Source of the DNA: an uncultured bacterium
Lineage (GTDB): Bacteria > Omnitrophota > Omnitrophia > Omnitrophales > Abzuiibacteriaceae
Direction of reading: 5' to 3'
Length of the DNA: 64,000 bases
Assembly (NCBI GenBank): GCA_964387845.1
Contig: CAYLXA010000001.1
Location: 256,001 to 320,000 of the forward strand
Shown: positions 1,980-4,900 of the stretch, one piece after another
Layout: the number at the start of each line of letters is the position of its first letter
Position numbering within the stretch: the stretch's first letter is position 1
The notes under the pieces: model-generated
Told to the model about the DNA's origin: nothing
Database searches by the model: none
What the model saw: the letters and a program-made list of their open reading frames with translations, nothing else
Program-made: the position numbers and the translations under genes

Positions 1980-4900
1980 CTAGTAATTATTTGTCGGATC
2001 GTGGTCAATATAATCTCTCGAAAATTCGCTGCCTTGATTTACTAACTTTGCAATGCCTTCTAGAAATCGGCCTATCTTAGTTTTGAATTGCTCCATCCTA
2101 ATTTGACGAGTAGGCTCGTTTGCTGGCCTTGGCCTAAATCTATCCATAGATTTTATGGCTTTTTGTTTAACTTTTTGATTTGCCCCTGGTTTTTCCCGCG
2201 AACTACGTTTTTGAAATTGTTTTTTAGGACTTGATCGACTTGTTTTTGCTTCTCTAAGCAAAATATCGGGAGCGGAAGCTACCTTTGCCGCAGAAATGGT
2301 TAGCGCGATCATGCCATCTGTTACGACGGGATAGTTACCCGCCGTCGGCGGCCCTCCGGGTAGCCCGGATCCCTCTCCTGGCAACTTAATGTTATCTACA
2401 AGCTTATCTGCTATCGCTTGTTTGTCAATGAATCGATCAATTGACTCTGAAAAATGTATTTCATTAGTCAAGCTTGCGCTTGTCATAGTTGCAGCGCTTA
2501 TTTGCGTAGCTGCGAGTGCCGCAGATGCAGATGCAATGCCGACAGCTTCTGAAATAGTAAAGGCGGAGCCTGATGCGGTGGTTAAAAGTGCGCTGCTTGC
2601 TTCTACATATACGTCGCCGCCTGCTAGCACAGCTTCACTGATAGTTATGTTGCCTGCGCCCGTACTCAACGCACCAGCTGCCGCTTGTAACGTTTGTAAA
2701 ATAACTGTGCCTGCCATTTGTATAATGGTAATAGCGGTTGTAGCTATAGTAATGGCTAACTTTACGACTGCGGCAATAATTGCAACTATAATCCACCAAA
2801 AATTACCGCTAGGATCGACAAATCTTATCGGATTATTCCTTGCGTAAGCATAACGATTGAAACTTTGCGGATCCTCGGGGCTTTGAATGAATGAATCGGG
2901 AGTAATAAAGCGACCTATTTGAGGATCGTAGTACCGGGCGCCAGCATAAATGAGATCAGACTCAAGATCTTCTTCATGGCCAGTATAAGTTCTATTAACA
3001 ATATCCGTTCCTTCCCGACGTTTTACTTCGCCATACGGTAAATACTCCATCAAAAGCGTTTGCATACCAGCTTCATTAGAAACAACATTGGTCGAACTTA
3101 AATGATCTTGATGGTAGAATCTTAAGTGCGGGATGCCTTGACTGGAAATTTCTAGATCGCTCACTCGTACTTCGCCCAGATAAAATCCCTTACGAGTCAA
3201 CAAATTATTAGGCCCATATTGAACTTCATAGTCCTTTCCTAAATAATAAGTGATTTGATTGTCGGCACTTTTCTTAACTCTTTGGCCCGTAGTATCGTAA
3301 ACATAAGAACCAATAAGTATAGGTTGATTGTCAGCAGGATTGCTTTGTATCGTGGCACTGATACTCTGAGAATTTGTAACATAAATCTTGTATGTTTTGC
3401 CAGTTTCCAATGTTGTGATGTCTGTAAATTCAGGGTCAATCACGAAGTGATCCCATGCTTGTGCGGTTGAATCCCAATACGAAATCTGGTCATAATCCGG
3501 ACCGATATTTAATCCAGAAAATATTTCCTGAATATCACTCATATATTGGCCGGACGTTGTGTTAAAAGGCTGGAAAGGGAGTGTGAAGGTATTCCATCCT
3601 GGATTAAATTGAAATGTATGATCTTGAGGTTCGCTAGATGCCCCCCTTGTCAGTTGCACAAGCTGGTTCTCAAAATCATACGTCAACAATTCATTATTCC
3701 GCTGGATCATATTGCCATTGGCATCATAGGAAAACGTGATTGTTTCCGATGAGTCTACGTATTGCGTAACTGCTTGGGGATGCAACGGGTCATTGTATTG
3801 AAGAGTGGCATTATTTTTTTGAGTCATGTTTCCAATTGCGTTGTATTGGAAATCATGAATTCCGTAACCTTGCGGATTAGAGGCTTGGATTAATCGATCA
3901 AGGTCGTCATATTGGAAGCTCTGTGAATTGGTGTTGATCGAATCCTGAATGGAAAGCACATTACCTTCGTTATCAAAGGAATATCCAAAATCCTGTAGTA
4001 ATTGATTTTGACCGCCTCGGGTTAATAGATGCGTTAATCGAAGTGATTGCGGATTATAGGTGTAATCTGTTGTGACACCATTCCCATATTGAATCTTTAT
4101 GACCTGCCCGGAGGGGTTATAGTCGACATTCGAAATGATTGACATTTGAGTTTGATCGGTGCGTATAAGCGCCATTATTTCCGTCTCGCCCATGCCGTTA
4201 TAAGTTATATTGAGAACATCGCCATCTGGATATTCAAGGGATGAGACTCTGTCTAGCGCATCATAAACTCGTGTAAAGACGTAATCATTTCCGTCATCAA
4301 GGGATTTTTTATCCTGAATGACACGACCTAGTGGGTCATAACGGAAAACCTGAATGCCGGAGTTGTCAGCAACTTTGACCAATTTTCCGATGGAATAATT
4401 AGTGCCAGGCAATCCGCCGCACGTATCAGATGGACATGAATCATACACGTAATCAACGTGGTTTCCGTCAGGGAATGTTTTCTTTGTGATCCGATTCAAC
4501 GGATCATATGTAAATTCTATTCGCGATCCACGCGCATCAATCTGAGCTGTTAAGTTATCGTTCGAGTCATACTCATATTGCCAGAATCCAGTATTAGGAT
4601 CATTGACGCTCCTTTTACGGCCTAATGTATCGTAAATGATGATCGTTTCATGTCCATAATGGTCGATAGTTTTCGTCAAACGACTTTGCGCATCGTATTC
4701 ATACTGCGTTGTATATATTTCTGCGCCATTAAACTCCTGCACTTCAACAATATTGCCAAACGCATCCTGCGAGATTCTTTTTTGATGATTATTTCGATCG
4801 ATTTCGGTCCTCACAAAGTCATCATAAATTATTCTGGAAAATGTTAAATCTGGATAGGTGGTTTTGATGATGCGACCCATCGGGTCGTAATCGTACGTGA

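Follow-up and report, generated by a model that had tools for sequence, protein, structure and literature searches.

RHS and related YD-repeat cocoons can carry payloads that act on membranes. For example, Tse5-CT, the payload of Tse5 (PA2684) from Pseudomonas aeruginosa, is cleaved and encapsulated by its Rhs shell, which serves it as a chaperone. The fragment is disordered, contains transmembrane (TM) and amphipathic helices and is not predicted to be an enzyme; it enters lipid bilayers and causes cells to depolarise (PMC9637101, PMC10684867). The Bacillus teneurin-like protein BiTLP is a Sec-exported YD-shell with a PxxxxDPxG site and a diverse immunity gene directly downstream. Its hydrophobic C-terminal domain (CTD) lies inside the shell and has a predicted TM segment ∼20 residues past the cut; to permeabilise E. 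coli, this domain must be directed to the periplasm (PMC13018210). In toxin complexes (Tc), the natural cargo spans 20–35 kDa with an isoelectric point (pI) of at least 8, and cargo that sticks to the cocoon via hydrophobic or amphipathic helices blocks translocation (PMC6868009). Here, we analyse a 64,000-nucleotide stretch (the window: positions 256,001–320,000 of contig CAYLXA010000001.1, assembly GCA_964387845.1) from an uncultured Omnitrophota bacterium that encodes an RHS cocoon protein with a 273-residue C-terminal tip, followed by genes for a TPR protein and a basic 210-residue protein. We tentatively read this tip as an encapsulated membrane-targeting payload of a Sec-exported TcB-TcC-type cocoon, belonging to a widespread class of tips with a hydrophobic start. 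This is the interpretation that we favour, held at somewhat less than even confidence.

The cocoon protein is built from a Sec-like signal, SpvB, an FG-GAP propeller, TcdB_midN, an RHS/YD shell, an RHS-associated core and the tip, in that order. Pfam and NCBIfam scans matched SpvB (residues 70–121, 5e-13), FG-GAP_3 (2.5e-10), TcdB_toxin_midN (residues 637–749, 4.9e-18), RHS_repeat (8.6e-41, six stretches) and YD_repeat_2x (3.6e-21), as well as DUF6443. The RHS-associated core, NCBIfam TIGR03696, was matched at residues 1717–1796 (E 9e-22). The N-terminus reads MNFSNLIKKLIAATLIAAFSNLVIIS…TAFA ahead of a glutamate at the possible cut, which in translation resembles a Sec-type signal, and the full-length RHS gene of one relative likewise encodes a signal-like N-terminus followed by SpvB. 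The top PDB sequence matches are TcdB2-TccC3 fusions (E 1e-23); T6SS (type VI secretion system) Rhs proteins, Tse5 and teneurin-like proteins come next. Together, the domain content and these best matches identify the protein as a single-chain TcB-TcC-type cocoon. Of the defining features of the RHS/TcB-TcC family, the TcB-type N-terminal region, the RHS/YD shell, the core with its PxxxxDPxG end and a polymorphic tip were all found, with the TPR gene as a candidate for the cognate immunity gene, and by this measure the protein belongs to that family.

An earlier, sequence-only reading of the locus had described the tip as the hypervariable post-core end of an RHS/Tc-type cocoon, and the domain scans agree: the core extends to NPIRFVDPSGN (residues 1787–1797), after which exactly 273 residues follow (window 1983–2801, stop codon 1980–1982). 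The aspartate, proline and glycine of the DPxG motif are invariant across 45 aligned relatives. By analogy with solved homologues (PMC10684867, PMC13018210), this conservation suggests that the tip is released autoproteolytically and encapsulated.

The tip as a whole is 28.8 kDa, has a pI of 9.49 and contains two histidines and no cysteine. Its composition changes along its length in the way the sequence-only reading had outlined, with a hydrophobic start, an Ala/Ser/Thr-rich stretch and a basic tail. The mean Kyte–Doolittle (KD) hydropathy of the 19-mer at tip residues 1–19 is 2.47, and the hydrophobic run reaches approximately residue 38; the 36–38 hydrophobic residues of the start are broken by K14 only. 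The same reading had counted two strongly hydrophobic helices here; the hydrophobicity stands, while the count does not, as single-sequence AlphaFold2 gives one long helix (residues 2–46) with a predicted local distance difference test (pLDDT) score of 86/78 across the first 20 residues. The start could be one long helix, a TM helix behind a hydrophobic leader, or a short hairpin. In residues 37–115, Ala accounts for 27%, Ser for 15% and Thr for 13%, and the net charge is −5; the pI of residues 1–115 is 4.05. This segment also holds a partial internal repeat of 29 residues, (I/F)TISEAV..., visible in the DNA as a direct repeat at 2542–2558 and 2629–2645 with a spacing of 87 nt.

The remaining sequence is predicted to be mostly disordered, with isolated helices. 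AlphaFold2 places a helix at tip residues ∼118–137 (pLDDT 63–72), and the rest of residues 116–180 scores below 50. The basic tail (residues 181–273) has 23 K+R versus 10 D+E, a net charge of +13 and a pI of 10.7. It consists of a K/R/S/P-rich stretch, probably disordered, and then a cationic amphipathic helix at tip residues ∼230–266 (window 2004–2114), in which KIGRFLEGIAKLVNQGSE has a hydrophobic moment of 0.65. This helix is the sole confident element of the C-terminal part of the tip, with a pLDDT of 91 at residues ∼236–255. Structure prediction of the last 273 residues had been proposed as a check on the tip; run without an alignment, it was uninformative, with a pLDDT of 45 for the whole tip and 58 for the C-terminal part and with confidence only in the opening hydrophobic helix and in the amphipathic helix of the tail. 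A glycine-zipper identity was considered and rejected: Gly makes up 7% of the tip, small-xxx-small motifs number 18 (19.1 +/- 2.5 in shuffles) with no GxxxG enrichment, and Pfam gives no glycine-zipper match.

The tip is a true sequence orphan. Scans against Pfam, NCBIfam, PADLOC and PHROGs returned no match of any kind, and so none to a toxin family (nuclease, deaminase, ADP-ribosyltransferase, peptidase, Ntox or others), and a PDB sequence search gave only a chance match to a pilin helix (E=0.43), which bears out the earlier statement that no recognised toxin domain is present. The C-terminal 158 residues have no Pfam match even at E <= 1. With phmmer, run in full over 1.84 billion representative proteins, the tip recovered itself and nothing else; a word-indexed search of 5.8 billion protein clusters found nothing, and pattern scans of the GTDB genomes and of JGI metagenomes, confirmed by tblastn, found no relative. 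BLASTP against the compositionally closest tips of related RHS proteins (P0002 and P0008) yielded composition-level noise only, and an all-vs-all BLASTP of 99 such tips gave ours no partner. Orphan tips are usual in this RHS clade: the C-terminal parts of seven relatives were examined, and none has a Pfam match (0/7). 'Unrecognised type', the label given by the sequence-only reading, is thus apt for the sequence and inapt for the layout, which is common to about half of the related tips and has analogues in Tse5-CT and the BiTLP CTD.

An orphan of this kind might also be a decaying or non-functional tip, that is, a low-complexity sequence without selected activity, such as a recombination remnant. 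The failure of every search to find a homologue would fit, as would the ∼40% of the tip that is low-complexity or predicted disordered and the singleton status of all four proteins of the gene unit to which the tip belongs. Against it stands the reading frame, which is intact over 273 codons and has codon usage like that of the core. Because codon usage, scored as log-odds, supports the annotated frame in each of the three sub-segments, and because a stop-free run of 273 codons has a chance probability of ∼7e-8, the frame is genuine. The size and charge are typical of the architectural class, the operon is tightly packed between terminator-like hairpins at both ends, and orphan tips are usual in the clade. 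We consider decay the least likely of the explanations weighed here, and very improbable.

As a membrane-targeting payload, the tip would presumably be cut after ...DPSGN by the cocoon's own aspartyl-protease site, and the shell would hold a largely unfolded polypeptide of 28.8 kDa and pI 9.5 soluble until delivery; that size and pI lie within the natural Tc cargo range (PMC6868009). Once released, the TM-grade helix (tip residues 1–38) and the small-residue-rich helices (residues 39–115) may enter a lipid bilayer. The anionic membrane, negative on its inner side, would attract the cationic tail with its amphipathic helix (residues 181–266) or pull it across, with permeabilisation or depolarisation as the predicted outcome. 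In the producer, the acidic cytosolic TPR protein, possibly together with the 210-residue protein, may bind and neutralise the tip; the pI of the TPR protein, 5.0, is electrostatically complementary to the tail pI of 10.7. The sequences show the domain architecture, the composition, the orphan status and, in relatives, the recurrence of both this layout and alpha-solenoid genes downstream, whereas cleavage, encapsulation, membrane insertion, toxicity and immunity are inferred. AlphaFold2 predicts, at low confidence, no globular domain in the tip, and with two histidines, no cysteine and no such domain the tip is a poor fit to the usual nucleases, peptidases and deaminases. Of the actions that the sequence-only reading had offered, namely membrane insertion or pore formation on the one hand and nucleic-acid binding on the other, membrane insertion is the better supported, if still tentative; a nucleic-acid target features in the two-module explanation discussed below.

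By analogy, the tip would act most like the membrane-active RHS payloads Tse5-CT and the BiTLP CTD. Like Tse5-CT, it combines predicted TM and amphipathic helices without an enzymatic domain, and the Tse5 shell is among the PDB matches of the cocoon. However, there is no sequence similarity between the two tips, and Tse5-CT is shorter (149 residues, ∼16 kDa, versus 273); on sequence, ours falls outside the Tse5-CT family. A PAAR-like N-terminus and T6SS delivery characterise Tse5, whereas our protein begins with a Sec-like signal and TcB-type domains and has no PAAR match. No T6SS genes were seen among the scanned open reading frames (ORFs) of the window. BiTLP (PDB 9ifo, 9pt5) resembles our locus in its Sec export, cleavage motif, hydrophobic payload start and directly downstream gene. 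Its superfold differs: teneurin-like proteins combine an FN-plug, NHL and YD-shell, in place of our SpvB, FG-GAP propeller and TcdB_midN, and the similarity of chains 9pt5 and 9ifo to ours is limited to the C-terminal core (residues 1630–1812). The BiTLP CTD has 92 residues, and teneurin-like CTDs average ∼15 kDa, compared with 28.8 kDa for our tip, with which the BiTLP tip has no sequence similarity.

Several observations weigh against membrane insertion as the killing step. Searches with phmmer and against the PDB found no sequence or structural homology of the tip to any characterised pore former. The missing fold is itself weak evidence, because AlphaFold2 worked from one sequence and reached only low confidence (pLDDT 45 and 58). 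The tip is not glycine-zipper-like, and most members of its class are. By the hydropathy of both downstream proteins, no integral-membrane immunity protein is encoded behind the tip, unlike in Tse5/Tsi5 or colicin-type systems; Tsi5 is an integral membrane protein with two TM regions, and our downstream proteins are soluble. There is a precedent for this arrangement in EsxX, a membrane-depolarising toxin that is neutralised in the producer cytoplasm by two soluble proteins encoded next to it, ExiAB (PMC12744356). Soluble downstream genes therefore do not speak against a membrane toxin. The parallel is partial, as EsxX is a glycine-zipper LXG substrate of a type VII secretion system, neither the TPR nor the 210-residue protein is related to ExiAB, and no counterpart of the ExiCD-like membrane immunity is present here. 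Finally, neither a target organism nor a route across the producer's outer layers follows from the locus.

The architecture also invites comparison with Photorhabdus TcdB2-TccC3 (PDB 4O9X, 6H6E), the best PDB match, which shares the order SpvB, beta-propeller, TcdB_midN, RHS shell and RHS-associated core. The tip could thus be classical Tc cargo: an unfolded basic hypervariable region (HVR) of ∼29 kDa, injected into a host or prey cell, eukaryotic or otherwise, by a TcA-like translocator encoded elsewhere. No immunity would then be needed, and the downstream genes would be unrelated or accessory. At 28.8 kDa and pI 9.5, the tip is inside the natural cargo range quoted above and within that of natural HVRs (∼30 kDa, pI >= 7.9; PMC6868009). 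The TPR and 210-residue proteins are both orphans, and neither is linked to any other toxin locus, as such cargo would allow. Our protein differs in being a fusion of B and C in one chain bearing a Sec signal; the characterised Tc B and C subunits are not known to have one, which counts against a Tc cargo. No TcA-like gene was found among the large ORFs of the window, one of at least 5321 residues included, or in an extra 5 kb of contig. The payload starts hydrophobic and is not an ADP-ribosyltransferase, and a TM-grade helix makes for awkward Tc cargo because cargo that sticks through its helices blocks translocation (PMC6868009). Small genes follow it as in interbacterial toxin-immunity loci, and the relatives' arrays of orphan modules and small downstream genes are typical of interbacterial polymorphic toxins. 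A classical Tc cargo is therefore improbable here.

Those relatives were collected with the last 539 residues of the RHS protein, a search that returned 182 RHS proteins, several of them labelled as Omnitrophota or Omnitrophica metagenome-assembled genomes. Their tips were cut at the conserved …P….DPxG motif and scored as hydrophobic-start when a TM-grade 19-mer lay inside the first 45 residues. By this definition, 46 of the 98 tips cut from search matches have a hydrophobic start (48 of 99 after three tips of neighbouring genes were added), as do all but one of the 19 closest relatives (18/19). In hydrophobic-start tips, the medians are 273 residues for length and 8.1 for pI, compared with 228 residues and 5.4 for other tips; our tip is therefore a textbook member of the class in size and charge. 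Most hydrophobic-start tips are glycine-rich, and several give weak Gly-zipper Pfam matches. A few bear Ntox8, Ntox10, AHH or EndoU domains behind the hydrophobic start, and one and the same start stands ahead of Ntox8 in one case and of an AHH nuclease in a second protein. A comparison with related genomes had been suggested as a check on hypervariability, and here the expectation held: the nearest relative (P0001) matches our protein at 58% identity as far as the end of the core and aligns weakly over the first ∼23 tip residues (GNFWWIIVAII… versus GNFWFLIGILI…), after which all similarity is gone.

The genomic contexts of five relatives show arrays typical of polymorphic toxins, in which a main RHS gene and then an orphan RHS C-terminal module are each followed by a small gene. 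In two of these genomes (L085 1–11372 and L086 1–8222), four tips have a common glycine-zipper N-terminal part of ∼190 residues and differ in the last ∼110. Two of them, with a common HEEAH (HExxH-like) C-terminal part, each precede a homologous lipoprotein (155 or 169 residues), while two with other C-terminal parts are followed by a 429-residue TPR protein and a 499-residue HEAT protein; neither the HEEAH part nor the others in these arrays have a Pfam match. Across the 99 tips, 26 pairs are significantly similar, 15 of them in the N-terminal part only, 6 over the whole tip and 1 in the C-terminal part only. Judged from these sequences, the hydrophobic region behaves as the constant module of the clade, and the C-terminal third as the polymorphic unit that covaries with the downstream gene. 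Such a pattern suits a carrier role for the hydrophobic part at least as well as a killing one, which further tempers the case for membrane insertion as the toxic act.

The strongest rival explanation follows from this pattern. The tip may be bipartite, with residues 1–115 serving as a membrane-entry or translocation module and the basic part from residue ∼116 to 273 as a variable toxin that works in the cytoplasm of the target, where it might bind a polyanion such as nucleic acid, and is neutralised by the cytosolic acidic TPR protein. Because relatives swap only their last ∼110 residues together with the downstream gene, the payload proper may be just the basic C-terminal part. The C-terminal type tracks the neighbouring gene (HEEAH with lipoproteins, the others with the TPR and HEAT proteins), shared N-terminal parts dominate the similar pairs, and known toxin domains occur behind hydrophobic starts. 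Our tip has a Pro/Gly-rich linker between its halves, and the TPR and 210-residue proteins are without signal peptides, so that neutralisation would be cytoplasmic. Precedents exist as well: the N-terminal glycine zipper of Tde1 is needed for translocation of its DNase (PMC10240207), and CdiA-CT toxins have modular entry domains (PMC11630599). In both, a hydrophobic N-terminal module stands before an exchangeable C-terminal toxin, as is seen directly in the relatives' tips. These systems nevertheless use another delivery vehicle, and our N-terminal part is Ala/Ser/Thr/Ile-rich without GxxxG enrichment and is found in no other tip, such that the modularity is seen in other tips and not in ours. 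The C-terminal part has no family match at E <= 1 and is predicted to be mostly disordered, with isolated helices and few catalytic-type residues. On balance, a two-module tip is possible but somewhat doubtful.

A Sec signal and a TM-grade segment in one protein also raise the question of whether the tip is a toxin at all, since that segment might serve as a stop-transfer signal while the producer exports the protein, a point that also weighs against the membrane-targeting payload. The hydrophobic stretch would then be an anchor formed during Sec export, with the shell on the outer face of the producer's cytoplasmic membrane and the basic tail in the cytoplasm contacting the TPR and 210-residue proteins in an anchoring or signalling role. 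The positive C-terminal region would obey the positive-inside rule, and both partners are cytosolic. However, the segment lies directly behind the conserved autoproteolytic DPxG site, so the anchor would be severed from its shell, and in solved RHS, Tc and teneurin-like structures the post-core peptide is inside the shell (PMC10684867, PMC13018210). The basic residues are >140 residues from the hydrophobic segment, whose immediate flanks are uncharged, and bona fide toxin domains stand behind the same hydrophobic start in relatives. An anchor of this kind is more improbable still than a Tc cargo.

The tip is encoded within a four-gene unit whose genes are tightly packed on the same strand and bracketed by two terminator-like hairpins (Table 1). 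The first gene, whose stop lies 1 nt ahead of the RHS ATG, encodes a protein with two Glucodextranase_B and several bacterial Ig-like domains behind a strongly hydrophobic N-terminal segment (KD 2.41). The protein, a singleton at 90% identity, is a possible partner of the cocoon in binding or adhesion. The TPR protein (pI 5.03) has no signal peptide and no TM segment (maximum 19-mer KD 0.99). No relatives of it were found in metagenome contigs, and its similarity to the relatives' TPR proteins is only that of generic TPRs. TPR or HEAT proteins nonetheless recur in the downstream, candidate immunity position behind relatives' RHS modules; a 181-residue TPR protein, for example, comes after one more of these modules. 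The 210-residue protein has no family match, finds only itself among 5.8 billion clusters, and has one borderline hydrophobic stretch (residues 34–52, KD 1.64) with charged residues inside. No orphan RHS tip/immunity cassettes lie downstream in the window or the longer contig. The G+C content at third codon positions (GC3) of the unit (540–9705) is 0.34–0.39, compared with 0.52–0.53 for enolase (21868–23169) and class II ribonucleotide reductase (38969–42238). This low value suggests a foreign island, and the unit looks like either that or a weakly expressed gene set. A GC break at the core/tip junction, the classical Rhs signature, was sought and is absent (GC3 0.385 versus 0.344).

Table 1. 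Positions of the RHS cocoon gene, the segments of its product and the other elements of the four-gene unit within the window.
Feature	Position	Strand	Description and basis
Terminator-like hairpin upstream of the unit	9751..9773	minus	10-bp stem, 7 GC pairs, T-run
Signal-bearing protein, first gene of the unit	8194..9705	minus	503 aa; Ig-like + Glucodextranase_B domains (Pfam)
RHS cocoon gene	1980..8192	minus	TcB-TcC-type fusion, 2070 aa; layout from ORF list + Pfam/NCBIfam
Predicted Sec-type signal peptide	8073..8192	minus	aa 1-40; n-region KK, h-region LIAATLIAAFSNLVIIS, possible cut between AFA and E; read from translation
RHS-associated core domain	2802..3044	minus	aa 1717-1797, last residues NPIRFVDPSGN; conserved aspartyl-protease/cleavage region
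Tip aa 1-38	2688..2801	minus	TM-grade hydrophobic segment FWWIIVAIIAAVVKLAITIATTAITIIQMAGTVILQTL; hydropathy, AlphaFold2 helix
Tip aa 39-115	2457..2687	minus	Ala/Ser/Thr-rich, mildly acidic, low-complexity helical segment; composition
Tip aa 116-180	2262..2456	minus	Short helix, Pro/Gly-rich linker (KLPGEGSGLPGGPPTAGNYP), second helix; sequence + AlphaFold2
Tip aa 181-273	1983..2261	minus	Basic tail; composition, AlphaFold2
TPR protein, candidate immunity/neutralising	1189..1968	minus	259 aa; TPR families (Pfam); starts 11 nt past RHS stop
Basic orphan protein, last gene of the unit	540..1172	minus	210 aa; pI 9.95; 16 nt past TPR gene
Terminator-like hairpin past the 210-aa gene, closing the unit	444..467	minus	8-bp stem, 6 GC pairs, T-rich tail

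By itself, a single orphan tip is an ordinary case of RHS tip diversity, new in sequence and with a layout already known. Even so, RHS/Tc cocoons are under engineering as protein-delivery devices, membrane-active payloads are their least understood cargo class, and the locus adds a sequence-unique example of a predicted membrane-type RHS payload. The most valuable by-product is the pattern seen across this RHS clade of uncultivated bacteria, in which a hydrophobic-start module, a swappable C-terminal part and downstream genes for TPR, HEAT or lipoproteins occur together. A bolder conjecture, which we consider unlikely, is that Sec-exported RHS toxins of the TcB-TcC type in uncultivated (Omnitrophota-like) lineages share, in their hydrophobic-start segment, a general membrane-entry module that has yet to be described, carrying small exchangeable C-terminal toxins across the target membrane. 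Our tip would then pair a non-glycine-zipper (Ala/Ser/Thr/Ile) version of the module with a wholly new basic toxin, non-enzymatic or nucleic-acid-directed, neutralised by an alpha-solenoid (TPR) immunity protein. If translocation is indeed the function of the module, RHS toxins exported by Sec would have a means of crossing a target membrane that needs neither a T6SS nor a TcA.

The surrounding sequence holds further large or unusual genes. A giant ORF of at least 5321 residues (48031–63996, minus strand) reaches the window edge and may extend past it; its only Pfam matches are Bac_transf (residues 308–472), PPDK_N, His_Phos_1 and PTS-HPr, and >85% of it is unannotated. It was considered as a TcA and rejected after a domain scan without TcA-like domains. 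Giant genes of this sort are reported for Omnitrophota in a preprint (bioRxiv 10.1101/2023.11.21.568195). A second FG-GAP-repeat protein, with 580 residues and a divergent InlB B-repeat domain, is encoded ∼9 kb from the RHS gene (18760–20502, minus strand). The enolase (21868–23169, minus strand) has at most ∼70% identity to GTDB species representatives, with best matches scattered over Bacteroidota, Ignavibacteriota and Planctomycetota, which places the source genome in a lineage that is not closely represented in that collection. A 332-residue fusion (27800–28798, minus strand) joins an AAA-type kinase to a dCMP/cytidine deaminase domain that also scores on MafB19-deam, and probably belongs to nucleotide metabolism rather than to a toxin. 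Beyond window position 1, the longer contig (L001 17856–23188) continues downstream of the unit with a response regulator, a GerE-type regulator and a 1299-residue DUF4062/nSTAND-NTPase protein, whose layout is a STAND-type NTPase architecture known from defence and conflict systems.

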